Shown in pieces: positions 1-54,433 of a stretch of DNA of 64,000 nt (its first letter is position 1; each line of letters starts with the position of its first letter). The notes under the pieces were generated by a model. It was not told the DNA's origin. It saw only the letters and a program-made list of their open reading frames with translations, and did not search any database. Position numbers and translations under genes: made by a program. The stretch comes from a phage: the sequence record PZ026127.1; one strand, written 5' to 3'.

Positions 1-1463
1 CGAGTATCATTCGACAAGTGAATATAAGCCCAGAGACCATCGCAGGGACATTCGCTAACGCACCGATACATGAATATATTGCCGGAACAGCTCCGCGTCC
101 TAGCGACACCTACAGTTGCTCTCCTAACGGCATGATGTATTATAAAGACCGTGAAGGTGTGATTCCGACAGAAATCACAAAGGTATTCTTGCAGCGTAAA
201 GAACATAAAGGTTACATGCTTGCAGCTCAGCGTAATGGTGAGTTAATTAAAGAAGCATTGGAAAATCCTAATCTCTCGGTTGATAGTCCACTGGATATCG
301 ATTATCGTTTTGACTTCTCTGACGAAATCAAAGCCCAGATTAAAGCACTGTCAGCGCCTTCTTTAAGAGAAATGTTGAAGAAAGCCGAGCTCACTGAAGT
401 TGCAGGTAACACGGCTCAGATTAACCGTAAGTTGCTTATCAACTCCCTTTATGGTGCACTTGGTAACGTATGGTTCCGTTACTATGACCTCAGGAACGCA
501 ACTGCAATCACATTGTTTGGTCAAATGGCCCTCCAATGGATTGAACGTAAGGTTAACGAATATCTGAATAGCGTGTGTAAGACTGAAAATCAGAAGTTCG
601 TGCTCTATGGTGATACTGACTCCATTTATGTTAAGGCCGATGCAATCATCAATAAAGTAGGCGAAGATAAATTTCGTGACACTAACCACTGGGTCGACTT
701 CTTAGATAAATTTGCACGTGAACGTATGGAACCAGCTATTGATGCAGGCTTCCGTGAGATGTGCGAATACATGAACAACAAACAACACTTGATGTTCATG
801 GACCGAGAAGCTATCGCAGGTCCTCCACTTGGTTCTAAAGGTCTTGGTGGATTCTGGACAGGCAAGAAACGTTATGCACTGAACGTTTGGGACATGGAAG
901 GTACTCGTTATGCCGAACCGCACTTGAAAATCATGGGTCTCGAAACTCAGAAATCAAGTACACCTAAAGCAGTTCAGAAAGCTCTGAAGGAATGTATCCG
1001 TCGTATGCTTCAGGAAGGCGAGGCATCTTTGCAAGAATATTTCAAACAGTTTAATAAGGAATTTAACGAACTCGATTATGTAAGCATTGCAGCAGTATCC
1101 AGTGCTAACAACATCGAGAAATATAATGAAGGTGGATTCCCGGGTTCTAAATGTCCATACCACATCAAAGGTTGCTTAGCTTACATGCGTGCTTCTGCAG
1201 GTGATTTGACTATGCCTCGTATCGTTGATGGTGAAAAGGTATATGTACTGCCACTTAAAGAAGGCAACCCGTTTGGTGAAGCTTGTATGGCATGGCCGTC
1301 AGGTATTGAACTTCCGGTTCAGATTCGTGACCAAGTCCTCCGTTGGATGGACTACAACGTACTGTTCCAAAAGACCTTTATCAAACCTCTGACCGGTTTT
1401 ACTGAGTCTGCTAAAATCGACTACGAGAAAAAAGCAACATTATTTGATATGTTCGACTTTTAA
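1..1463 (+). CDS. 43: DNA polymerase gp43, C-terminal part (5' end lies outside window)
   Basis: ORF runs in frame from window edge; family-B polymerase motif YGDTDS and C-terminal LFDMFDF tail as in T4 gp43. Confidence 0.95.
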   Translation, partial: SIIRQVNISPETIAGTFANAPIHEYIAGTAPRPSDTYSCSPNGMMYYKDREGVIPTEITKVFLQRKEHKGYMLAAQRNGELIKEALENPNLSVDSPLDIDYRFDFSDEIKAQIKALSAPSLREMLKKAELTEVAGNTAQINRKLLINSLYGALGNVWFRYYDLRNATAITLFGQMALQWIERKVNEYLNSVCKTENQKFVLYGDTDSIYVKADAIINKVGEDKFRDTNHWVDFLDKFARERMEPAIDAGFREMCEYMNNKQHLMFMDREAIAGPPLGSKGLGGFWTGKKRYALNVWDMEGTRYAEPHLKIMGLETQKSSTPKAVQKALKECIRRMLQEGEASLQEYFKQFNKEFNELDYVSIAAVSSANNIEKYNEGGFPGSKCPYHIKGCLAYMRASAGDLTMPRIVDGEKVYVLPLKEGNPFGEACMAWPSGIELPVQIRDQVLRWMDYNVLFQKTFIKPLTGFTESAKIDYEKKATLFDMFDF

Positions 1464-1465
1464 GT

Positions 1466-1495
1466 GTTTACATACCACAAGGAACGTGGTAGTAT
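1466..1495 (+). promoter_or_regulatory. early sigma70-type promoter (GTTTAC -35, TAGTAT -10) upstream of imm
   Basis: GTTTAC at 1466-1471, 18 nt spacer, -10-like hexamer, then CCTATCAAC box and GAGGAA RBS. Confidence 0.5.
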
Positions 1496-1525
1496 CCTTC
1501 CTATCAACTACATGAGGAAATTACA

Positions 1526-1762
1526 ATGGAAGCTTTAATCGTTAGTGCTGGTGTTTTAGGATTCGGTTCTCTGGTTATTATGTTCATCGGTTACTTTTTA
1601 CCATGGATTCTGGCTCTTCTGCGAGGCACTCGTAGTAATGTCGGAATTTTCTTCCTTAATCTCCTGTTAGGCTGGACGATGATTGGTTGGGTAGTGGCTT
1701 TAATCTGGGCTATCGTCGCTGAACGTAAATCAAACGCACAAATCATTATTGTTAAGCAATGA
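1526..1762 (+). CDS. imm: Imm superinfection-immunity membrane protein
   Basis: 78 aa, two hydrophobic helices, position directly after gene 43 as in T4; RBS GAGGAA. Confidence 0.85.
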   Translation: MEALIVSAGVLGFGSLVIMFIGYFLPWILALLRGTRSNVGIFFLNLLLGWTMIGWVVALIWAIVAERKSNAQIIIVKQ

Positions 1763-1903
1763 AAATAATTATTTTATTTCTTATAATGACTGCCTTTACC
1801 ATTTATTGGGCAGTGGCAATTCCGCCAATGATTCCGACACTCATCATTGGATGGATTATTCTTATAGCACAAATTAAGTATAACTGTTTTAATTGAGGAT
1901 ATT

Positions 1904-2404
1904 ATGAAAAAGTTAATTATCGCAATGAGTATGCTCCTATCAGGTTGCGCGGTCCAATATGGTGATACAGTTTCGGCCGATGAAGTTGGTAAAGCTCGTA
2001 TCGCAGCTGAACAGAAACAATTCGATGGCGAAATGAAATTCCGTGCAGGTTCTGGACTTGTGTACACCCGAGCTAATAATCAATGCGGTAATAACTGTGC
2101 AAAATATGCTCAACAAGAAATCGAATTCCAACGTGAACAAGAGTCCAAGCGTGAAGCGGTACTAGCCAAACACCAGGCAGAAATGAAGCGTCAAGATGAT
2201 TTGTACAAAAAGCAGAAACTGTATGCGATGTGCGTAAACCATATCAATCTACAGATTTCCATCCACGAGGCTCGTTATTACGAAATGCTCGAAACCGAGA
2301 GCTTCGGTAAAGCTCGTGATTATAAGAAACAAATCGATAAGCTCAAGACCAAAGCACCGGCGGCAATAGAACAGTGTATTGAAATCGGTAAAGATAAGAT
2401 TTAA
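1904..2404 (+). CDS. predicted lipoprotein, function unknown
   Basis: N-terminal MKKLIIAMSMLLSGC lipobox followed by charged coiled-coil-like region; RBS GAGGA. Confidence 0.6.
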   Translation: MKKLIIAMSMLLSGCAVQYGDTVSADEVGKARIAAEQKQFDGEMKFRAGSGLVYTRANNQCGNNCAKYAQQEIEFQREQESKREAVLAKHQAEMKRQDDLYKKQKLYAMCVNHINLQISIHEARYYEMLETESFGKARDYKKQIDKLKTKAPAAIEQCIEIGKDKI

Positions 2405-2464
2405 GCAATACCAATTTATTAAAAATAGTGTATAATGTACCTACATTCACTTGAGGAACAGATA

Positions 2465-4138
2465 ATGAAAAAGGTTGTTATTTTAGGCGCGGGTCTTGGC
2501 TCACGGTTGTATCCAATTACCAACGAAATCCCGAAGGTACTGGTTAACTACAAACAACATACTGTATTAAAACATTTGTATGATTTGTATAGTAATCAAT
2601 CAGATGAAATTATTCTGGTTATTCACAGCAAATTTAACGACCTCGTTAAAGGCTATATTAAATCCATTAACATGATTAATAGTGATAAGCCTAAATTCAC
2701 TATTCGTAACGTTGATGTTGCCAATGGTTCGGCTCATGCTATCGATTGCATTGCCGAAGATATCATTGGGCACAATGTCTTGTTTAACTGGTGTGATATT
2801 ATTCCTGAAGGTCATAAAGTTGAGTGGGATAACGACTACTGTTATACCTATGGGACTGACTGTCGTTTTACATTTGAAGAACCGTACTTGCGTGAAATTG
2901 GTACCGGTGGTGGCGTAGTTGGCTTGTATCAGGTGGCTAATTGGACAGGTTTCGACCGTTCTAATTATGGTGAAGACCTTGCTGACAACCTGGATTCAAT
3001 GGTCCATTTGACTGAACGTAAGTTAGACTTTGTAGTTGATGTTGGTGACAAACTGAAACTGGCTAAGGCCCATGAAGATTCTGAAATTAACCGTGAATTT
3101 AATAAATTAGAGTTCACTGAGAATCTAGCTATTAAAGTACCTACAAACGAATTAGGTAAAGAAATCCAATCTAAAGAAATCAATTGGTACAATTCTATTG
3201 ATTCTGAATTCGTTCCTAGCATTGTAGACTTTGCTCCAGGTGAATTCATTAAAATGGAACGTATCTTTGGTCGAACCATGGCAGATGCCTACCGGTTTAT
3301 GTCTAAAGAAACTAAAGTCCTAATGGTTTATAAGGTTATTAGTGCATTACGTTCGTTCGGTGGAACTATCGATAATCCATCTGATGAGCAATGGTATTCT
3401 GATGTTAAGAAAGAAGTATTGGACAAGGTCCTTATTCGTAATGCTTCTATCGCCGGATTGATTGAAGGCTTTGCTCCACAGGGCATTACCCATGTTAACG
3501 ACTTTAAGGTAGGCGACCCTGAAAAACTTCTTCGCCATGCACTAGAAATTCTGTCTGAACATAAAGAACCGTACCAACTTATTCATGGCGACCCGCACTA
3601 CAGTAATATTATGTTGTCGGACGAAGGTGATATTAAAATCATCGACCCACGTGGTTATTTTGGTAATAGTTCTAAAGGCCCTGCGATTTATGATGAAGCT
3701 AAGGTGCTTTATTCTATCGATGGTTATGACAAATTTAACTCTGACCCTCTATGGGGTGGCTTAACTCGTAACGGAACTCGTGTATTCGTTGATATTGAAA
3801 AGGTTATGCCTTTAGATGATATTCCAATGTGTACATTTAAGCACAAGCTCTGGATTGCTGTTATCTGGATGGCATTGGCAGGTTACTTTAAAAATAACCC
3901 TCTGAAAGCTCTGGGTGCTTATTACAACGGTTTGTACCAACTGAGTGTGCTGCTGAAGCGACATCCTCGTAAGCGTAAGCTTATCACAGGTGAATTCGTT
4001 GATGAAGTTCGCGACCCTATCACGGCTCAAATTATCACTCGTTGTCCTGATAAGTGGGTTTTGCTTGACCAAGAAACTGGTGTAAAATATAAACCTACAG
4101 GTTCTACTGAACTCCACAAACAATGGAAGAAAATTTAA
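2465..4138 (+). CDS. bifunctional nucleotidyltransferase / kinase-like phosphotransferase (N-terminal sugar-1-P or phospho-alcohol nucleotidyltransferase domain, C-terminal APH/choline-kinase-like domain)
   Basis: N-terminus ILGAGLGSRLYPIT...PKVLV matches the G-x-G-[ST]-R-x-x-P-x-T nucleotidyltransferase signature; C-terminal HGDPHYSNIM...IKIIDPRG matches the catalytic loop of aminoglycoside/choline/anomeric-sugar kinases. Start set at ATG 2465 after GAGGAA; the track ATG at 2435 lies inside a TGTATAAT -10 box. Confidence 0.7.
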   Translation: MKKVVILGAGLGSRLYPITNEIPKVLVNYKQHTVLKHLYDLYSNQSDEIILVIHSKFNDLVKGYIKSINMINSDKPKFTIRNVDVANGSAHAIDCIAEDIIGHNVLFNWCDIIPEGHKVEWDNDYCYTYGTDCRFTFEEPYLREIGTGGGVVGLYQVANWTGFDRSNYGEDLADNLDSMVHLTERKLDFVVDVGDKLKLAKAHEDSEINREFNKLEFTENLAIKVPTNELGKEIQSKEINWYNSIDSEFVPSIVDFAPGEFIKMERIFGRTMADAYRFMSKETKVLMVYKVISALRSFGGTIDNPSDEQWYSDVKKEVLDKVLIRNASIAGLIEGFAPQGITHVNDFKVGDPEKLLRHALEILSEHKEPYQLIHGDPHYSNIMLSDEGDIKIIDPRGYFGNSSKGPAIYDEAKVLYSIDGYDKFNSDPLWGGLTRNGTRVFVDIEKVMPLDDIPMCTFKHKLWIAVIWMALAGYFKNNPLKALGAYYNGLYQLSVLLKRHPRKRKLITGEFVDEVRDPITAQIITRCPDKWVLLDQETGVKYKPTGSTELHKQWKKI

Positions 4139-4521
4139 TGTCACATCGAGTAGAAAATAAGCCTCATTTATGTTTTGACATCGATAACACAATCACGATT
4201 TGGAACCATGACCGTGATTATGAAAACTTTAAACCGGACACCGAAATGGTGTCCATGATTAATAAGCTTTATGATGAAGGATGCGAGATTACCTTGTTCA
4301 CTGCCCGTGGTATGACTTCATGCGGTCCAGGTCGAATCTTGGTTGAAGTAGTTCCTGCATTGGTTAAGAATCTTGAAAAGATTGGATTGAAATATCATAA
4401 TCTGCTTACACATAAGCCGAGTTATACTTTTATCATCGATGACCGAGCAATCCGTCCTGACCACTTTAAAGAAATGGTTCGTGAAGGAACTCTTGAAACC
4501 TATAAGGCATATCATCCGTGA
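4138..4521 (+). CDS. HAD-superfamily phosphatase-like protein
   Basis: Motif I FDIDNTIT (DxDxT), motif II TLFTAR, motif IV IIDDR; start ATG overlaps upstream stop (TAATG). Confidence 0.6.
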   Translation: MSHRVENKPHLCFDIDNTITIWNHDRDYENFKPDTEMVSMINKLYDEGCEITLFTARGMTSCGPGRILVEVVPALVKNLEKIGLKYHNLLTHKPSYTFIIDDRAIRPDHFKEMVREGTLETYKAYHP

Positions 4522-5054
4522 AACCAAAAATCATTGTTATCGACGGCCCGGATAATTCCGGGAAGTCTACTTTAATTGAATCGCTTTTATCTGATAAGAA
4601 ATATCGTCTTATCGATTTCCCTAAAAAGATTAATGGTAAGTGCATTTCGATAGGGACTGATAATGACAAGGCTTTAGTCGAGACGTTGTATAAGTTTTTA
4701 GACCCTAATTTTGTCTACATCTTAGACCGTGGATATCCTAGTAATATTGTTTACTCAGGATTCCTTCGTGGTGAAATGGACCCCTATGTAGAACTGGAAG
4801 ATTGGAAAGGGTTTAAATCTGAATTCAATATTATTGAGGTTATTTTAACCCGTAATCCACTGGATAAAGACTTTGAAGATGACCTTATTAAATTAACCAA
4901 AGATGAGTTCAACCTAACTATCCGGCAATATGAAACATGTTTTGAAAACGTGTTTAAAATCTTAAATCACGACGGCCATAATAACTTGCTTAACGTCGAT
5001 ATGGTAGAATTAAAACGTCTGAATGAATATATTGAAAATAAGGTGAATAAATGA
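4518..5054 (+). CDS. P-loop nucleotide kinase, thymidylate-kinase-like
   Basis: Walker A IVIDGPDNSGKST and TMK-like DRGYPSNIVYS motif; GTG start overlapping upstream stop. Confidence 0.6.
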   Translation: MKPKIIVIDGPDNSGKSTLIESLLSDKKYRLIDFPKKINGKCISIGTDNDKALVETLYKFLDPNFVYILDRGYPSNIVYSGFLRGEMDPYVELEDWKGFKSEFNIIEVILTRNPLDKDFEDDLIKLTKDEFNLTIRQYETCFENVFKILNHDGHNNLLNVDMVELKRLNEYIENKVNK

Positions 5055-5749
5055 AACACATTACCGCTGTTAGTTTTGAAAACGCGTTTAAGCAAATGAA
5101 CGAAGAAATCCTGGAAGCTCCACAGTTTGCAGTTGATTCTCGTATCGGCCGTTGTTATGAAATTGGTTCTGCTTCGGTAGAAGTACTGGATGCAAGCACC
5201 TATAAATTCACCGACCCTCGTATTAATCGTATCAACTATGATTATGCCGAATCTTTCTGGAAGTTTATGATTTCTGGTGGTACTGACGCCGCCGAAGCAT
5301 TTAAGGAATACCCTAATGTTGCTAAGTTCATTGATAAGCCGAAAAGTGACGTATTGCCTGCAAACTTCAACACTTTCTATGGACCTAGAATTGTGGCCCA
5401 ACTCCCAGCCTTACTTAAAGAGCTTAAAGAGAAGCCTAACTCAAGACGAGTTGTGTTCCAAATTCTCCAAGAACAAGACCAAGCCCTCCTTGATTCTGAC
5501 GAATCCTTAGAATATCCATGTACCGATTCGGTGACATATTATATTCGTGATGGACGTCTGTATGCACACACTCATATGCGTTCACAGAACTGTGCTATTG
5601 TTATGCAGCTGGATTTCTATCTGCAGGGTAAACTGATGGCCTTTATTGCTGAACAGTGTGGTGTTGGTCTGGGTACGTATTCCCATACTATGGTTAGTGC
5701 ACACGTATTTGAACGTGATTTTGACTACGTTCGAGGATTCCTGAAATGA
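5051..5749 (+). CDS. 42: dCMP hydroxymethylase (thymidylate-synthase fold)
   Basis: 232 aa; motif CTDSVTYYIRDGRLYAHTHMRSQN resembles T4 gp42; position between imm region and uvsX. Confidence 0.85.
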   Translation: MKHITAVSFENAFKQMNEEILEAPQFAVDSRIGRCYEIGSASVEVLDASTYKFTDPRINRINYDYAESFWKFMISGGTDAAEAFKEYPNVAKFIDKPKSDVLPANFNTFYGPRIVAQLPALLKELKEKPNSRRVVFQILQEQDQALLDSDESLEYPCTDSVTYYIRDGRLYAHTHMRSQNCAIVMQLDFYLQGKLMAFIAEQCGVGLGTYSHTMVSAHVFERDFDYVRGFLK

Positions 5750-6639
5750 GTTTGTTTATCGTTCCTATTTTCAGTATGCGTAGTTACGAAACAGGTGAAT
5801 ATGCCGTCCTTAAGGACGGCAATTTTCAACTCCATTTAAACCGTGCTTGCCCAGGTGATTATCTGGCTTATCCTAGAAATTCGAGCGATATCAAAGAATG
5901 CATTGAATTATTTCCTGAACTGAATTTTGTACCTCTTTGGTATAAAGAAAATGCTTATGAAACTCGTAAACATTTTTGGTCTGAAAATGAGTTCGTTGTT
6001 GATTCGTTAATCGAATACTATGACTGCTCAGGATTGGTAACCGATATCACAGGTTATGATGGTGCTCATACCGTACAATTCAACTTTAACATTACAATGG
6101 ACCCTGAAGTTCCTCGTTATTACATCGATGAGTTTATTGATACCGACGTGGGTTCAGTTGAACGTTCGATTTATACTACAGTCTTGAATCAATGTCAGAA
6201 AGACGTCCTGGTGTCACGAGGTGCGTCCTCTGATAAGATTTTTGTAGACCAAAAGGTAATTAATCCTGCAGTAATTGAGCGTTACTCTGAAGGTCTAGCG
6301 CCTATTAAAATTGATGGTATTTTCCATCCATTCCGTATTTCAGATAAATGCTACCAATTCGAAAGAGTTGTAGACCAGGCTGCGGCTGAGGGTTCTCGTC
6401 TTTACATCACCGACCCGAATGATTCATTTAAGCGTGAAGACTATCGTCCTGATGTAGAGATTATTAAATTCAAACCGAGTAAGGTTGAATATTATCAGAT
6501 TCTGAAATCAAGACCTCATATCATTTATCATGAGAATCCCGGTTTAGTATTCCATCCTGGTCTGGCTGAATTCATTTATTTCGGTGCCCACATCCATTCT
6601 GAGCACGAAATGCCAAGTTATGAGGACGTGGTCCTTTAA
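5746..6639 (+). CDS. unknown protein occupying the beta-glucosyltransferase position; candidate hmC-DNA transferase
   Basis: 297-aa ORF translationally coupled to gene 42 (ATGA overlap); no recognisable motif; assignment by synteny only. Confidence 0.4.
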   Translation: MSLFIVPIFSMRSYETGEYAVLKDGNFQLHLNRACPGDYLAYPRNSSDIKECIELFPELNFVPLWYKENAYETRKHFWSENEFVVDSLIEYYDCSGLVTDITGYDGAHTVQFNFNITMDPEVPRYYIDEFIDTDVGSVERSIYTTVLNQCQKDVLVSRGASSDKIFVDQKVINPAVIERYSEGLAPIKIDGIFHPFRISDKCYQFERVVDQAAAEGSRLYITDPNDSFKREDYRPDVEIIKFKPSKVEYYQILKSRPHIIYHENPGLVFHPGLAEFIYFGAHIHSEHEMPSYEDVVL

Positions 6640-6716
6640 CGCTGTAAATGTGAAGTGATATAATTACCCTATCTTAAAACGTGAGTAAAATATAATGATG
6701 CCTATGGAAAAATATA

Positions 6717-7889
6717 ATGTCTGATTTAAAATCCCGTTTGATTAAAGCTTCTACTTCTAAAATGACCGCCGACCTGACCAAATCTAAATTGTTTAATGGT
6801 CGTGACGAAGTTCCTACTCGTATCCCTATGCTGAATATTGCATTGGGCGGTGCGTTGAATGCAGGCTTACAATCAGGTTTGACAATCTTTGCTGCTCCAT
6901 CTAAACACTTTAAAACGTTGTTTGGACTTACCATGGTTGCGGCATATATGAAGAAATATCCAGACGCAATTTGTTTGTTCTATGACTCTGAGTTTGGTGC
7001 TTCAGAATCTTATTTCCGTTCGATGGGTGTTGATTTGGAACGTGTGGTTCATACACCAATCCAGTCAGTCGAACAGCTTAAAGTTGATATGACCAACCAG
7101 TTAGAAGAAATTACTCGTGGCGAAAAGGTTATTATCTTTATCGACTCCATTGGTAACACTGCTTCTAAGAAAGAAACCGAAGATGCTTTGAACGAGAAAG
7201 TTGTAGGTGATATGACTCGTGCTAAATCACTGAAATCTCTGTTCCGTATCGTAACACCTTATCTGACTATCAAAGATATCCCTTGTGTAGCAATCAACCA
7301 CACGGCTATGGAAATTGGTGGAATGTATCCTAAAGAGATTATGGGTGGTGGTACTGGTATTCTGTACTCTGCTTCTACCGTGTTCTTTATCTCTAAACGT
7401 CAGGTTAAAGATGGTACCGAGCTCACTGGTTATGACTTCACACTGAAGGCTGAGAAATCTCGTACGGTTAAAGAGAAATCAACGTTCCCTATCACCGTTA
7501 ACTTCGAAGGTGGTATCGACCCATTCAGTGGATTGCTTGAAATGGCTACTGATATTGGCTTTGTCGTGAAACCTAAAGCTGGCTGGTATAATCGTGCATT
7601 CCTTGACGAAACCACAGGCGAAATGGTTCAAGAAGAAAAAGCATGGCGTGCTAAAGCTACCGATTGTGTCGAGTTCTGGGGACCGCTGTTTAAACATGCC
7701 CCGTTCCGTGAAGCAATCGAGAATAAGTATAAGCTCGGTGCAATTAATTCTATTAAAGAAGTTGACGATGCAGTGAACGACCTTATTAACTCTCGTGTCT
7801 CTAAGAACGTTGCTGTTAAATTAGGTGGTAATGCCCAAAGCGCCGCTGATATCGAAAACGATTTGGAAGAGATGGATTTAGATGACTGA
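6717..7889 (+). CDS. uvsX: UvsX recombinase (RecA-like)
   Basis: 390 aa, N-terminus MSDLKSRLIKASTSK and overall strong match to T4 UvsX. Confidence 0.95.
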   Translation: MSDLKSRLIKASTSKMTADLTKSKLFNGRDEVPTRIPMLNIALGGALNAGLQSGLTIFAAPSKHFKTLFGLTMVAAYMKKYPDAICLFYDSEFGASESYFRSMGVDLERVVHTPIQSVEQLKVDMTNQLEEITRGEKVIIFIDSIGNTASKKETEDALNEKVVGDMTRAKSLKSLFRIVTPYLTIKDIPCVAINHTAMEIGGMYPKEIMGGGTGILYSASTVFFISKRQVKDGTELTGYDFTLKAEKSRTVKEKSTFPITVNFEGGIDPFSGLLEMATDIGFVVKPKAGWYNRAFLDETTGEMVQEEKAWRAKATDCVEFWGPLFKHAPFREAIENKYKLGAINSIKEVDDAVNDLINSRVSKNVAVKLGGNAQSAADIENDLEEMDLDD

Positions 7890-13320: not shown

Positions 13321-13839
13321 ATGGCATACTTTAACGAATGCGCAAACCTGATTGATGGTGTTGATAAAGCTGAGGAAGCTTATTTTAATGCTCTGATTCA
13401 TGAAGATAAAGACCCTCTGCAAGTTATGCTTGATATGCAGAAATCTTTACAGGTTCGTTTGGCTAATGACCGTGAATATTGTTACCATCCGGACAAATTA
13501 GCGACAGCCGGTGATGTTGTTGCTTGGATGCGTGAACAGAAAGATTGTATTGACGATGAATTCCGTGAACTTCTGACTTCCCTCGGTGAAATGTCTAAAG
13601 GTGAGAAAGATGCATCTGCTGTATGGAAAAAATGGAAAGCCCGTTACCCGGAAGCACAAGCCAAACCTATTTCAGAAATGTCTCCTGAAGACCAGCTTGA
13701 AATTAAATTTGAACTCATTGATATTATGCACTTCGTATTCAATATGGCTATTGGCCTGAATATGTCGGCTGAAGAAATGTTTAAACTTTATTATCTGAAG
13801 AATGCTGAAAACTTTGCAAGGCAGGACCGTGGCTATTAA
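13321..13839 (+). CDS. 56: dCTP pyrophosphatase (dCTPase/dUTPase, MazG-like)
   Basis: 172 aa, matches T4 gp56 size and sequence character; located between 61 and soc. Confidence 0.85.
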   Translation: MAYFNECANLIDGVDKAEEAYFNALIHEDKDPLQVMLDMQKSLQVRLANDREYCYHPDKLATAGDVVAWMREQKDCIDDEFRELLTSLGEMSKGEKDASAVWKKWKARYPEAQAKPISEMSPEDQLEIKFELIDIMHFVFNMAIGLNMSAEEMFKLYYLKNAENFARQDRGY

Positions 13840-24117: not shown

Positions 24118-25935
24118 ATGATTAAGAATGAAATTAAAGTACTGTCCGACATTGAACATATCAAAAAACGTAGTGGGATGTATATTGGCTCAAGTGCTAA
24201 TGAAGCTCACAGTCGATTCCTGTTTGGTAATTTTACACAGGTAAACTATGTTCCTGGACTGGTTAAATTAATTGATGAAATCATTGATAACTCTGTCGAT
24301 GAAGCTATTCGTACCAATTTTAAATTCGCAAATAAAATTGATGTTCAAATTAAGAATAACCAGGTTTCAGTTTCTGATAATGGTCGTGGTATTCCACAAG
24401 CAATGGTCACCGACCAAAATGGTGAACAGATTCCAGGTCCTGTAGCTGCATGGACTATTCCAAAGGCAGGTGGTAACTTTGGAGATGACGCTGAGCGTAA
24501 GACAGGCGGCATGAATGGTGTCGGTAGTAGTTTAACTAATATCTTCTCTGTTTTGTTCACAGGCATCACCTCTGATGGTGAGAATGAGATTACTGTTAAC
24601 TGTTCAAACGGAATGGAAAACAAAGGTTGGTCTACTAAGAAATCTAAAGGTAAGGGTACTTCGGTTATATTCACCCCAGACTTTAATCATTTCGAAGAAA
24701 ATAGCCTGTCACAAATTTATCTGGATATTACATTAGACCGATTGCAAACTCTGGCCGTAGTTTATCCTGATATTCAATTTACTTTTAATGGTAAAAAAGT
24801 AGATGGCAACTTTAAAAAGTATGCTAAGCAATTTGGTGAAGACTTTGTAATCCAAGAAACCGATAATGTTTCGATGGCATTTACTCCTTCTCCGGATGGA
24901 TTCCGTCAACTGACTTATGTAAACAATATCCACACCAAGAATGGTGGCCACCACGTTGAATGCGTATTCGATGATATTTGTGAACACCTTCTGCCAGGCA
25001 TTAAAAAGAAATACCGTGGAATTGAAGTAACTAAAGCTCGTGTTAAAGAATGCCTTACGATGGTGATGTTCATTCGTGATATGAGCAACATGCGTTTTGA
25101 TTCACAGACTAAAGAACGTTTGACCTCTCCTTTTGGTGAGATTCGCAATCATATCCAAATTGATGCTAAGAAAATTGCTCAAGCCATTCTTAAAGTTGAT
25201 GGGTTGATTATGCCTATCGTTGAAGCTGCTTTAGCACGTAAATTAGCAGCTGAAAAGGCTGCCGAAACTAAAGCCGCTAAGAAAGCTTCTAAAGCCAAGG
25301 TCCATAAGCATATTAAAGCTAACCTATACGGCAAAGATGCTGATACAACCCTGTTCCTAACCGAAGGTGATTCCGCTATGGGTCCTTTCATTGAAGTTCG
25401 TAATAAAGACCTTCAAGGTGGTTACCCATTGCGTGGTAAGGTTATGAATACCTGGGGAATGACAGCAACAGATATCATGAAGAACAAGGAACTATTTGAT
25501 ATCTGTGCAATCACTGGACTTGTTATTGGCGAACCTGCAGAGAAAACTAACTATCGTAATATCGCTATTATGACTGATGCTGATGTGGATGGTACTGGTT
25601 CGATTTATCCATCATTGCTAGCCTTCTTTAGTCAATGGCCCGAATTGTTCGAACAAGGCCGAGTACGGTTCTGTAAAACTCCGGTGATTATTGCCCAGGT
25701 TGGTAAAGAACAGGAATGGTTCTATGACGTTCCTAGTTATACCAAAGCTAAGGACTCTCTACCAAAACATTCTATTCGGTACATCAAAGGACTAGGTTCT
25801 CTTGAGAAAGCTGAATATCGTCGAATGATTCAAGACCCTAAATTTGATGTGGTTCAATTACCTGAAGATTGGAAAGAACAGTTCGAAATGCTCCTTGGTA
25901 ATGACCCACAACTCCGTAAGGCCTGGATGTCGTAA
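24118..25935 (+). CDS. 39: DNA topoisomerase II large subunit (GyrB-like ATPase), uninterrupted 39/60-equivalent
   Basis: 605 aa single ORF with GHKL ATPase N-terminus and Toprim-like C-terminal half. Confidence 0.9.
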   Translation: MIKNEIKVLSDIEHIKKRSGMYIGSSANEAHSRFLFGNFTQVNYVPGLVKLIDEIIDNSVDEAIRTNFKFANKIDVQIKNNQVSVSDNGRGIPQAMVTDQNGEQIPGPVAAWTIPKAGGNFGDDAERKTGGMNGVGSSLTNIFSVLFTGITSDGENEITVNCSNGMENKGWSTKKSKGKGTSVIFTPDFNHFEENSLSQIYLDITLDRLQTLAVVYPDIQFTFNGKKVDGNFKKYAKQFGEDFVIQETDNVSMAFTPSPDGFRQLTYVNNIHTKNGGHHVECVFDDICEHLLPGIKKKYRGIEVTKARVKECLTMVMFIRDMSNMRFDSQTKERLTSPFGEIRNHIQIDAKKIAQAILKVDGLIMPIVEAALARKLAAEKAAETKAAKKASKAKVHKHIKANLYGKDADTTLFLTEGDSAMGPFIEVRNKDLQGGYPLRGKVMNTWGMTATDIMKNKELFDICAITGLVIGEPAEKTNYRNIAIMTDADVDGTGSIYPSLLAFFSQWPELFEQGRVRFCKTPVIIAQVGKEQEWFYDVPSYTKAKDSLPKHSIRYIKGLGSLEKAEYRRMIQDPKFDVVQLPEDWKEQFEMLLGNDPQLRKAWMS

Positions 25936-26734: not shown

Positions 26735-28945
26735 ATGATTATTGAAACCGAAAAAGAACAAATCATTGGTAATGGTGCTAAGTCCACAGGCTTTACTATT
26801 CAGGCATCGCCTAAGGTCTTTAAAATTTTGTCATCAGACCTTTATAGTAATAAAGTACGTGCCGTAGTTCGTGAACTAATTACCAACATGATTGATGCCC
26901 ATATTCTAAATGGTAATAAAGAACGTTGGAAAGTACAGGTTCCTGGTAAACTAGACCCTCGCTTTGTATGTCGTGATTTCGGTCCGGGTATGAGTGATTT
27001 CCAAATTCGTGGTGATGAAAACGAAACAGGTTTGTACAACTCTTATTTCGCATCATCCAAAACGGCTTCTAACGATTTCATCGGTGGCTTTGGCCTTGGT
27101 TCAAAATCTCCGTTCAGTTATACCGAAACGTTTAATATCACCTCATGGCACAATGGCGAAGTTCGCGGTTATGTAGCATATATGGATGGTGATGGCCCGC
27201 AGATTAAACCTACTTTCGTAGAACCTATGCAGCCAGGTGATAAAACAGGTATCGAAATCACGGTTCCTGTTGATGAAGAAGATTTCCGTAAGTTTGAAAC
27301 TGAAGTTCGTTATATCATGCGGCCTTTCATTGGTCTTGGTGATGTAGACGGTGTTGAAGTTGATTATTTCCCTGAATTTGACGATTACCATCCTGTAACC
27401 ACTACAAATTATGGCAGCTTCGAACGTTCAGGACTTTATGCAGTTTATGGTGGTATTGTTTATCCATTGGATTCTGCCTATAATAAAGGCACATGGATGC
27501 GTACTCGCCATGATGTAGTTTATATTAAGTTCCCTATGGGTTCACTGGATATTGCTCCGTCTCGTGAAGTGTTGTCTCTTGATAAACGTACGATGGAAAA
27601 TATTGCAACCCGTATCGAAGCACTGGATGCAGTGGTCTTTAAAAACGATACACAGGAATGGGTTGAATCTGATAATCCACGCCATGTTTATCGTGACCTT
27701 TCTAACCTTGGTTACAGTGCTCGTGACTATCTTACCAAAAAAGGTGGAACTAGCCTGTTTACTACAGAAAAATTGACATATGAGAAATTATACCAGCGTT
27801 ATACCCTTCAAAACGACCTTATTAATTTAGGTGTGGTTTACGAAGTCGTTTCAGACCCACGTTTGAAACGAATTAAGTCAAGTGGTAATACTTCTTCGGT
27901 AGCAGGACTTAGTAATTTATTAGGCATTAATAAGAAAGAAATCCATGTTGTTTATGATGATGAAAAAGGTCGTGTGCCATTAGTTCGAGGTCTTTGGGCT
28001 CTGGCAATGGACAACAGTGCTTCGGCTAAGAAAATTGTTAAAGAGAACAATATTCCTAAATACGGAACTGACCTTATTTTTGTCGACCCAAATTCAATGT
28101 TGCAAATGCAACAACTTGAAAAGGTTAAAGAACTTTTTAAAGGTGACACAATTCATTTTTATAAAGTCTCTGAACTGAATAAAATTGTTAAGCCATGGAT
28201 TCCGGTTACTGTCCGTTCATCAGAACCGCGTCCTAAAACACCGAGTGCTTATCGTTGGTTCATTAAAGACGGGCGCTGGCAACAAGAGACCATGTATTTG
28301 ACTGCTGCCGAAGCAGAAGAAATTACAGGTTATGTTCTGTTTGGCAGTCGTTCTGATATTATGGGAATGGATGAAGCTTATGGTATCTTTGACATCAATA
28401 CCACTACCATGTGTCGTATGGCTAATTTGATTGGTGCTACCGAATTCCATATCATTCGCCCTCAGATTGCCAAAAAGATTAAAAAGTTAGGCCAATGCGA
28501 ATGCTTGATGGAAGCTACATTAGAAGCTTATGCTGAAGCCTTAGACGCGGTAGATGTTGATGACTACCTTGGTAGCAATACTCGAGCTCGGTATTACCTT
28601 GAAATCATTGCTAAGTTCCCTCAGCTTAATTTCATGACCAAGTATTTCAGTGATAAGCCGGTAACTGAAGCATATACTCGTCTGAGTAATTTCTATGATA
28701 TATTCCGTTATATGAATTTCCATGGTTATATCACTGATGATAAGCTTTCCGTTATCAAGAAAATTTGTAACAATACTTTTTTTAAGTTGACTGATAATGC
28801 TTCAAGCAACAATGATAAAATGACTGTACAGTTTGAATCTGATTACCATTTAGTTTCGGACTACATGTATCGTCGTGGAACATCCATTACCGAGGCTTCT
28901 GTAGCTCAAATTGTTAAATTCATGAAAGCCGTGGAAGCGGCTTAA
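26735..28945 (+). CDS. rIIA: RIIA lysis-inhibition/membrane integrity protein
   Basis: 736 aa; N-terminal GHKL-like segment; size and order as T4 rIIA. Confidence 0.9.
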   Translation: MIIETEKEQIIGNGAKSTGFTIQASPKVFKILSSDLYSNKVRAVVRELITNMIDAHILNGNKERWKVQVPGKLDPRFVCRDFGPGMSDFQIRGDENETGLYNSYFASSKTASNDFIGGFGLGSKSPFSYTETFNITSWHNGEVRGYVAYMDGDGPQIKPTFVEPMQPGDKTGIEITVPVDEEDFRKFETEVRYIMRPFIGLGDVDGVEVDYFPEFDDYHPVTTTNYGSFERSGLYAVYGGIVYPLDSAYNKGTWMRTRHDVVYIKFPMGSLDIAPSREVLSLDKRTMENIATRIEALDAVVFKNDTQEWVESDNPRHVYRDLSNLGYSARDYLTKKGGTSLFTTEKLTYEKLYQRYTLQNDLINLGVVYEVVSDPRLKRIKSSGNTSSVAGLSNLLGINKKEIHVVYDDEKGRVPLVRGLWALAMDNSASAKKIVKENNIPKYGTDLIFVDPNSMLQMQQLEKVKELFKGDTIHFYKVSELNKIVKPWIPVTVRSSEPRPKTPSAYRWFIKDGRWQQETMYLTAAEAEEITGYVLFGSRSDIMGMDEAYGIFDINTTTMCRMANLIGATEFHIIRPQIAKKIKKLGQCECLMEATLEAYAEALDAVDVDDYLGSNTRARYYLEIIAKFPQLNFMTKYFSDKPVTEAYTRLSNFYDIFRYMNFHGYITDDKLSVIKKICNNTFFKLTDNASSNNDKMTVQFESDYHLVSDYMYRRGTSITEASVAQIVKFMKAVEAA

Positions 28946-52744: not shown

Positions 52745-54433
<1,689 letters not shown>

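Follow-up and report, generated by a model that had tools for sequence, protein, structure and literature searches.

A HAD phosphatase and a divergent P-loop kinase encoded in a probable arabinosyl-5-hydroxycytosine hypermodification cluster of a Dhakavirus

We analyzed two adjacent phage genes, encoding a HAD-superfamily phosphatase and a P-loop kinase related to thymidylate kinase, in a 64,000-nucleotide stretch of sequence record PZ026127.1 (the whole stretch is referred to as the window). Judged by DNA identity, the window comes from a T4-like phage and is a Dhakavirus sequence: over positions 2400-6700 it shares 97.6% identity with Salmonella phage vB_SalD_ABTNLS3, which is classified as a Dhakavirus, and 97.5% with Escherichia phages WG01 and QL01. 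Five genes follow one another here on the plus strand, namely an AfhE-like bifunctional enzyme (2465-4138, in an open reading frame [ORF] that opens at 2435), the AfhF-like HAD phosphatase of 127 amino acids (aa) (4138-4521), the kinase of 178 aa (4518-5054), a predicted 5-hydroxy-dCMP synthase of 232 aa (5051-5749), and a putative first DNA arabinosyltransferase of 297 aa (5746-6639). The junctions, read from the sequence, are TAATG (4136-4140) between the AfhE-like and HAD genes, GTGA (4518-4521) between the HAD and kinase genes, ATGA (5051-5054) between the kinase and synthase genes, and ATGA (5746-5749) between the synthase and glycosyltransferase genes. These four overlapping stop/start junctions indicate that five genes are chained rather than three. 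The preliminary description of this DNA was thus correct in coupling the phosphatase, the kinase, and the gene downstream of them through the GTGA and ATGA overlaps, although it took that downstream gene for a dCMP hydroxymethylase, and the gene is of the 5-hydroxylase type. Both genes of the pair are genuine rather than chance ORFs, with PHROG matches at E-values of 2.8e-42 for the HAD protein and 3.1e-39 for the kinase (phrog_761) and with homologues of each in more than 340 phage records. A promoter and terminator scan of positions 1400-6800 revealed nothing exceeding shuffled expectation.

The five proteins are, in gene order, 43, 64, 36, 79, and 67% identical to homologues from phage HY126, and they have homologues in RB69 too. 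Dhakaviruses are named among the carriers of a syntenic cluster by which T4-like phages replace the cytosine of their DNA with arabinosyl-5-hydroxycytosine (Lee et al., 2026, PMC13326640). It is probable that the pair belongs to the arabinosyl-5-hydroxycytosine hypermodification cluster of a Dhakavirus and that the kinase phosphorylates a 5-substituted dCMP. He and coworkers are also said to have described, in 2026, the arabinosyl-5-hydroxycytosine cluster and the Afh pathway of HY126. The system is already known, and the phosphatase has a solved and assayed counterpart; the remaining interest lies in the kinase family.

The phosphatase ORF runs from the ATG at 4138 to the TGA at 4521. Its product contains HAD motif I as D14-x-D16-x-T18 (FDIDNT), which supplies the nucleophile and acid/base aspartate positions, motif II as T55 (LFTARG), motif III as K93 (THKP), and motif IV as D101-D102 (IIDDR). 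All four motifs are conserved in the alignments to the PDB entries 9iqw (E-value 3e-54, residues 3-127) and 1xpj (E-value 1.4e-11), in agreement with the preliminary description of a 127-aa HAD protein at this position. Over its aligned part, 9iqw has the sequence of the HY126 protein whose gene comes right behind that of the AfhE-like enzyme, and the window protein shares 64% identity with this AfhF of HY126 and 63% with RB69 gp51. Like these two proteins and DLP3 gp81, it is a HAD protein of 127-128 aa that lacks a cap domain, and, as in HY126, its gene lies directly 3' of the AfhE-like gene and overlaps the stop codon of the latter. The window differs from HY126, RB69, and DLP3 in that the kinase gene follows the HAD gene directly, in the place of a gp50-like gene. 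The score of 52.5 bits against NCBIfam TIGR01689 (capsule biosynthesis phosphatase), below the cut-off of 162, marks the protein as a relative of that subfamily and not a member of it. AfhF of HY126 is described as a Mg2+-dependent phosphatase that converts arabinofuranose-1,5-bisphosphate to arabinofuranose-1-phosphate (PMC13326640, citing He et al., 2026). The window protein is accordingly a predicted arabinofuranose-1,5-bisphosphate 5-phosphatase of UDP-arabinofuranose synthesis, and the 64% identity to AfhF makes the earlier suggestion of a phosphatase acting on a sugar bisphosphate in a donor pathway essentially right.

The label "phosphoheptose isomerase" attached to this protein was rejected as a propagated mislabel, given the presence of the HAD motifs and the absence of any isomerase domain. 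The HAD phosphatase commonly bears this name in public records, and in OR756449 (locus L002, positions 4739-6326) the 5-hydroxy-dCMP synthase is named "thymidylate kinase."

The product of the gene at 5051-5749 is 79% identical to the HY126 enzyme and 78% identical to RB69 gp48, compared with 26% identity to T4 gp42. Its best PDB matches are the HY126 crystal structures 9iqu, 9iqc, and 9ir2 (E-values of ~1.5e-125), with T4 gp42 (1b49) at 4.7e-06. At the positions corresponding to residues 143/146/169/177 of Escherichia coli ThyA, it has E/C/N/D, as against D/C/D/D in T4 gp42 and L/C/D/N in ThyA, so that the cluster signature D169N, N177D, and L143E is present in full. The RB69 gp48 and DLP3 gp80 enzymes convert dCMP and O2 to 5-hydroxy-dCMP, apparently with a flavin cofactor, and D169N is diagnostic for such synthases, as nine further D169N homologues all yielded 5-hydroxycytosine (PMC13326640). 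By homology, we assign the gene to a 5-hydroxy-dCMP synthase, that is, a flavin-dependent dCMP 5-hydroxylase of the thymidylate synthase superfamily. T4 gene 42 belongs to the same superfamily, occupies the same slot between gene 43 and uvsX, and shares the catalytic cysteine and the dCMP-selecting Asp177. However, the window synthase is distant from it in sequence and has asparagine in place of Asp169, and its close homologues make 5-hydroxy-dCMP with flavin and O2, so the label "gene 42" does not fit. A synthase of this type implies a base that would carry a 5-hydroxyl rather than a 5-hydroxymethyl group.

The phage has a second member of the thymidylate synthase superfamily with a different job: at 53570-54433, ~48 kb away, lies the gene for a canonical thymidylate synthase, which shares 46% identity with E. 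coli ThyA. With this true thymidylate synthase encoded elsewhere in the phage, the kinase is linked to hydroxylation of dCMP rather than to the synthesis of dTMP. Public records also call genes of the cluster "thymidylate synthase / dCMP hydroxymethylase."

The kinase ORF extends from the GTG at 4518, the sole usable start 5' of the P-loop, to the TGA at 5054, and its product aligns end to end with database proteins. As stated in the preliminary description, this 178-aa protein carries a P-loop (G10-PDNSGKS-T18) and a D70-R71-G-Y-P-S75 motif; residues G10, D12, G15, K16, D70, R71, N76, and D121 are invariant among 34 family members. Of all proteins of the cluster it has diverged furthest, sharing 36-37% identity with RB69 gp45 and with its HY126 homologue XAN60473.1, a protein of 182 aa. 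RB69 gp45 likewise falls into phrog_761 and is associated with a D169N synthase. RB69 gp45, DLP3 gp78, and RL38J1 gp214 are given as a thymidylate-kinase-like "nucleotide kinase" on the basis of fold matches (PMC13326640, Table 1); the likening of the DLP3 and RL38J1 proteins to the window kinase follows this listing, and our sequence comparison covered RB69 gp45 and HY126. The Thanatos paper does not mention the kinase, and a Tn-seq preprint on phages LC53 and Bas46 contains no essentiality data for it.

A word-based protein search retrieved 9 relatives of the kinase only, and when 1.84 billion cluster representatives were searched exhaustively, only 59 were obtained at an E-value of 1e-3 or lower. 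The kinase sequence by itself had marginal matches in the PDB (best E-value 0.064), and a family profile of 34 members matched YorR of phage SPbeta at 9.8e-10, followed by thymidylate kinases at ~1e-7. The profile alignment to the yeast and Candida thymidylate kinases covers the acidic P-loop GxDxxGKST, the FPK motif, and DR-x-x-x-SN-x-VY. Invariant D12, at the acidic third position of the P-loop, aligns to GLDRTGKTT of the yeast enzyme; the acidic P-loop residue of thymidylate kinases makes contact with the acceptor nucleotide at its 3'-OH. In the DR(Y/H/F) region, D70 and R71 are followed by a third residue that is G or F, and the conserved S75, N76, and Y79 align to DRYVYSGVAY of thymidylate kinase. 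The AlphaFold2 model of the kinase (predicted local distance difference test score 87.2) had thymidylate kinase, YorR, and PPK2 as Foldseek neighbors, with probabilities of ~1.0 and moderate TM-scores (0.5-0.59). The kinase therefore resembles Tmk and Bacillus subtilis SPbeta YorR (2axp/3kb2) in the P-loop nucleoside monophosphate kinase fold, in the GxDxxGK[ST]T P-loop with its acidic residue, and in the FP(K/R) and DR-x-x-x-S-x-x-x-Y motifs. It differs from Tmk in that its family is found among dCMP-modifying synthases and not with dTMP synthesis, and the family has a strongly conserved motif of its own, F-x-DDLI (residues 119-124). Taken together, the sequence comparisons and the model place the kinase in a separate, small, and divergent family that is related to thymidylate kinase and is not Tmk.

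We then compared gene neighborhoods of the kinase by scanning the ORFs of 56 IMG/VR loci with kinase relatives, 16 of them T4-like and 40 non-T4-like (the query alignment contained 10 sequences). The complete set of AfhE-like, HAD, synthase, glycosyltransferase, and kinase genes was present in 14 of the 16 T4-like loci, and 12 of these 14 have the order synthase, glycosyltransferase, kinase with overlapping ends. The order HAD, kinase, synthase, glycosyltransferase in the window differs from this prevailing arrangement of RB69-type clusters; among the T4-like loci scanned, the kinase directly follows the HAD gene only in the Dhakavirus locus and in one Klebsiella-type locus. At the non-T4-like loci with a distant kinase homologue, a gene of the thymidylate synthase family occurs within 8 kb in 28 of 40 cases, in 12 of which it directly adjoins the kinase gene or overlaps it. 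The dCMP-type residue Asp177 is found in 27 of these 28 neighboring synthase homologues, most of which retain D169, while one has N169. The family also occurs in gene fusions: protein P0062 joins the kinase to a dCMP-type synthase homologue with residues D143/D169/D177, and a MazG/PRA-PH-like pyrophosphatase of the dCTPase type is fused to the kinase in L028, next to the gene for an N169 synthase. At locus L046, a dCMP deaminase gene is among the neighbors of the kinase relative. The neighborhoods and fusions tie the family to a route from dCTP through dCMP and 5-modified dCMP to 5-modified dCDP. Because of this tie to a modified-dCMP pathway, we infer that the kinase is a 5-substituted dCMP kinase, acting here on 5-hydroxy-dCMP. 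The earlier proposal that the kinase supplies modified nucleotides is, on this gene context, the best explanation of its role.

The translational coupling of the kinase to the HAD phosphatase in the window phage would also suit a place in the sugar arm, where the kinase would phosphorylate free arabinose or an arabinose phosphate, and P-loop sugar kinases do occur in the same broad fold class. Such a role is highly improbable, and we rejected it on gene context. In most lineages the kinase gene adjoins the synthase and glycosyltransferase genes and not the sugar genes, and no sugar-pathway genes were observed among the scanned neighbors of the distant relatives. In addition, PMC13326640 already gives the C-terminal domain of AfhE as the sugar kinase of the pathway, and the Table 1 entries of that paper for RL38J1 include the "nucleotide kinase" and not the arabinose-pathway enzymes.

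At the non-T4-like locus L028:7566-10315 (IMGVR_UViG_3300028840_000981), the genes for the MazG/PRA-PH-like::kinase fusion, an S-adenosylmethionine-dependent methyltransferase-like protein, and an E143/N169/D177 synthase are adjacent, and the top Pfam matches of the methyltransferase-like protein include an O-methyltransferase domain. This trio could form a route to 5-methoxycytosine or to another non-glycosyl derivative of 5-hydroxycytosine. At L057:6889-8001 and L048:6899-8002, a C5-cytosine DNA methylase-like gene is located directly upstream of the kinase gene and a gene for a D177 synthase homologue.

Combining these assignments, we propose the following pathway, in which the relations of the window proteins were computed here from sequence, whereas for the reactions of AfhE, AfhF, and the synthase we rely on published work with the orthologues of HY126, RB69, and DLP3. 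In the sugar arm, the kinase domain of the AfhE-like enzyme would convert arabinose-5-phosphate to arabinofuranose-1,5-bisphosphate, the HAD protein would strip the 5-phosphate to give arabinofuranose-1-phosphate, and the AfhE nucleotidyltransferase domain would turn the latter into UDP-arabinofuranose. In the nucleotide arm, the phage dCTPase would provide dCMP for hydroxylation to 5-hydroxy-dCMP by the synthase, and the kinase would phosphorylate 5-hydroxy-dCMP to its diphosphate. The derived triphosphate would be polymerized into DNA, to which the glycosyltransferase encoded at 5746-6639 would then attach arabinose. The modification predicted by homology is thus a glycosyl (arabinosyl) one, contrary to the non-glycosyl modification that the preliminary description had considered, and arabinosyl-5-hydroxycytosine is predicted for Dhakavirus DNA from homology and from Fig. 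4 of PMC13326640.

Several observations weigh against a 5-substituted dCMP kinase in this pathway. The RB69 gp1-type deoxynucleoside monophosphate (dNMP) kinase phosphorylates 5-hydroxy-dCMP to the diphosphate in vitro, and coexpression of gp1 with the synthase in E. coli is enough to produce 5-hydroxycytosine in plasmid DNA (PMC13326640). The gp1-type kinase is found in 1413 records, Dhakaviruses included, and its activity renders the step of the phrog_761-type kinase apparently redundant. The proposed role, phosphorylation of a phage-specific 5-substituted dCMP while sparing dCMP, resembles that of T4 gp1, which belongs to an unrelated family present in all T4-like phages, and both kinases coexist in Dhakaviruses. 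For phrog_761-type kinases, the literature that we found offers the fold-based name "nucleotide kinase" and no measured substrate; its coverage stops short of He et al. (2026) and Mahler et al. (2025), where the kinase may be assigned differently. Nor did we find in the literature a chemical analysis of Dhakavirus DNA. The kinase also scored below the cut-offs of the thymidylate kinase models, with 15.1 bits against Pfam PF02223 (cut-off 27) and 19.1 bits against NCBIfam TIGR00041 (cut-off 83.25). In Morganella phage MP1 (NC_031020, L064:20500-21030), a 39%-identical kinase gene stands alone between gp43 and uvsX, and the first 50 kb of MP1 contain no synthase, glycosyltransferase, AfhE-like, or HAD gene. 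The MP1 kinase may be a relic or may be a sign of a more general kinase role. Finally, two kinase relatives (P0042 and P0043) have C-terminal fusions to HhH-GPD DNA-glycosylase domains and another (P0064) is fused to a UDG-superfamily domain, which hints at chemistry at the DNA level and is left unexplained by a nucleotide kinase.

The orphan MP1 gene, without modification genes nearby, would be compatible with a housekeeping or general (d)NMP kinase that acts, for example, on dTMP, dCMP/CMP, or UMP to boost dTTP or UTP for replication or for UDP-arabinose, without specificity for the modified base. The nearest solved relatives of the kinase are thymidylate kinases and YorR, it has a weak NCBIfam match to (d)CMP kinase, and UTP is consumed by UDP-arabinofuranose synthesis. 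This explanation nevertheless appears unlikely. The distribution of the kinase in T4-like phages tracks the arabinosylation cluster and not the replication genes (344 records, compared with the 1413 for gp1), and genus by genus it is found in as many records as the HAD gene (177 for Escherichia, 57 for Acinetobacter, and 25 for Klebsiella, among others). Its neighbors are D177 synthase homologues and not canonical ThyA, the phage thymidylate synthase being encoded 48 kb away, and housekeeping rephosphorylation of dCMP would counteract the phage dCTPase.

The glycosylase-domain fusions recall instead the 5-HMUDK enzymes, which are paired with glycosylase-like aGPT-Pplases, and P-loop kinases that act on a base in DNA have a precedent (PMC8989533). 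On this alternative, which the preliminary description had raised for hydroxymethylpyrimidine, the kinase would phosphorylate the C5 hydroxyl of a modified pyrimidine in DNA and enable a non-glycosyl substitution. The validated 5-hmU DNA kinase gp54 of Pseudomonas phage M6 (PMC8989533) is similarly a small P-loop kinase of a phage, and its gene lies in a base-hypermodification cluster close to that of a thymidylate synthase homologue. However, it works with aGPT-Pplase transferases, which are absent here, and acts on a hydroxymethyl group, whereas the base expected here carries 5-OH, not 5-CH2OH. M6 gp54 belongs to phrog_800 (E-value 2e-39) and not to phrog_761, its match to the latter being confined to the P-loop, and hhalign of gp54 against the kinase family profile aligned 29 P-loop columns. 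Homologues of gp54 or of the transferase M6 gp51 (best E-value in the window, 0.36) were found neither in the window nor in the 56 related loci, and no aGPT-Pplase or amino-acid:DNA transferase partner is present there. In Pfam, the fused domains correspond to HhH-GPD and UDG rather than to aGPT-Pplase families, the kinase family is acidic (median isoelectric point 5.1, compared with 8.7 for M6 gp54), and the products measured for RB69, DLP3, and their relatives are ethers of arabinose. We consequently rejected membership of the kinase in the 5-HMUDK group, given the P-loop-only alignment, the missing transferase partner, and a linked synthase with the 5-hydroxylase signature, and we give almost no credence to a kinase acting on DNA in this phage. 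M6 gp54 itself (L007:16686-17249) and phrog_800 are mislabeled "terminase small subunit."

The coexistence of two kinases would be explained if the phrog_761-type enzyme acted on arabinosyl-5-hydroxy-dCMP, which would be too bulky for the gp1-type kinase to accept, the first arabinose being added before replication. Room for this substrate is left by the first arabinosylation, which could not be reconstituted on 5-hydroxycytosine DNA; Lee et al. leave undecided whether it takes place on the mononucleotide (PMC13326640). The prevailing order of overlapping synthase, glycosyltransferase, and kinase genes in T4-like loci would fit it as well, as would the consecutive RL38J1 locus tags 214-216 for kinase, glycosyltransferase, and synthase (PMC13326640). 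If correct, such a pre-replicative route would lead from dCMP through 5-hydroxy-dCMP and arabinosyl-5-hydroxy-dCMP to the diphosphate, with the polymerase incorporating an already glycosylated dCTP; glycosylation of a base ahead of replication would be without precedent, and it would account for the unreconstituted reaction on DNA. We consider this route quite improbable, since the distant kinase relatives adjoin dCMP-type synthase homologues with no glycosyltransferase among the neighbors examined, the fusion partners are synthase or dCTPase-like domains and not glycosyltransferases, and the MP1 kinase has no glycosyltransferase nearby. Moreover, later arabinose additions take place on DNA (PMC13326640), and no evidence exists that the DNA polymerase accepts arabinosylated dCTP, as the route would demand. 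Phosphorylation of 5-hydroxy-dCMP thus remains our preferred reading for the kinase.

The AfhE-like ORF contains an NTP_transferase domain (Pfam, 34.3 bits, cut-off 21.2, residues 13-110) and an APH domain (25.6 bits, cut-off 23.2, residues 356-427), matches phrog_4098 at 3.5e-269 from residue 11 onward, and is 43% identical to its HY126 homologue over the full length from 2465. A start at the second methionine is shared by the homologues, by the PHROG profile, and by the gene as annotated in a 97.6%-identical genome, and the start is thus probably the ATG at 2465, giving a protein of 557 aa rather than the 567 aa from 2435. The protein is predicted to combine an N-terminal sugar-1-phosphate nucleotidyltransferase with a C-terminal APH-type kinase, in line with AfhE, which PMC13326640 describes as an arabinose-5-phosphate 1-kinase and UDP-arabinofuranose pyrophosphorylase. 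The product of the gene at 5746-6639 is 67% identical to a 299-aa protein of HY126 and matches phrog_3891 at 7.9e-159, with no sequence match in Pfam, NCBIfam, or the PDB. It is a putative first DNA arabinosyltransferase, as the glycosyltransferase assignment of the RB69 gp46:47 / DLP3 gp79 type was derived from structure predictions (Table 1 of PMC13326640). A gp56-type dCTPase homologue (13321-13839, plus strand), 78% identical to RB69 gp56 over the full length, would serve as a pathway accessory that supplies dCMP and removes dCTP, the role given by T4/RB69 annotation and by Table 1 of PMC13326640.

The cluster in the window is a trimmed one, for which loci L001:6499-7134 and L005:5932-7101 served as comparison. 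The entire window contains neither a homologue of an arabinose-5-phosphate isomerase nor a gene like RB69 gp50, and the interval from topoisomerase II (24118-25935) to rIIA (26735-28945) lacks a gp3-like gene for a second arabinosyltransferase. Such an isomerase occurs in 276 phage records, compared with the 344 that contain the kinase; Dhakavirus and Klebsiella-phage records lack it as a group, although they contain the kinase and HAD genes. The isomerase-less cluster is a lineage variant, in which arabinose-5-phosphate is presumably supplied by the host enzymes KdsD/GutQ. As only one glycosyltransferase was found, a single arabinose per base is predicted.

The cluster is flanked on the plus strand by the C-terminal part of the DNA polymerase gene gp43 (18-1463) and, 3' of 6639, by uvsX and genes gp40 and gp41. 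Between gp43 and the modification cluster, two small membrane-protein ORFs and a 166-aa ORF occupy positions 1526-2404 of the same strand. The 166-aa ORF has a lipoprotein-like N-terminus and belongs to phrog_1754, and its two small neighbors are hydrophobic, one of them being labeled "immunity to superinfection" in a near-identical genome. T4 has imm and imm.1 in the matching slot.

Dhakaviruses have been widely proposed for phage therapy, and their DNA most likely carries arabinosyl-5-hydroxycytosine and not hydroxymethylcytosine. This modification governs how sensitive a phage is to restriction, CRISPR, and type IV systems. The wider kinase family marks phages that modify dCMP at C5, and the substrate of the kinase would complete the pathway and bear on the stage of the first glycosylation, at the nucleotide or on DNA.

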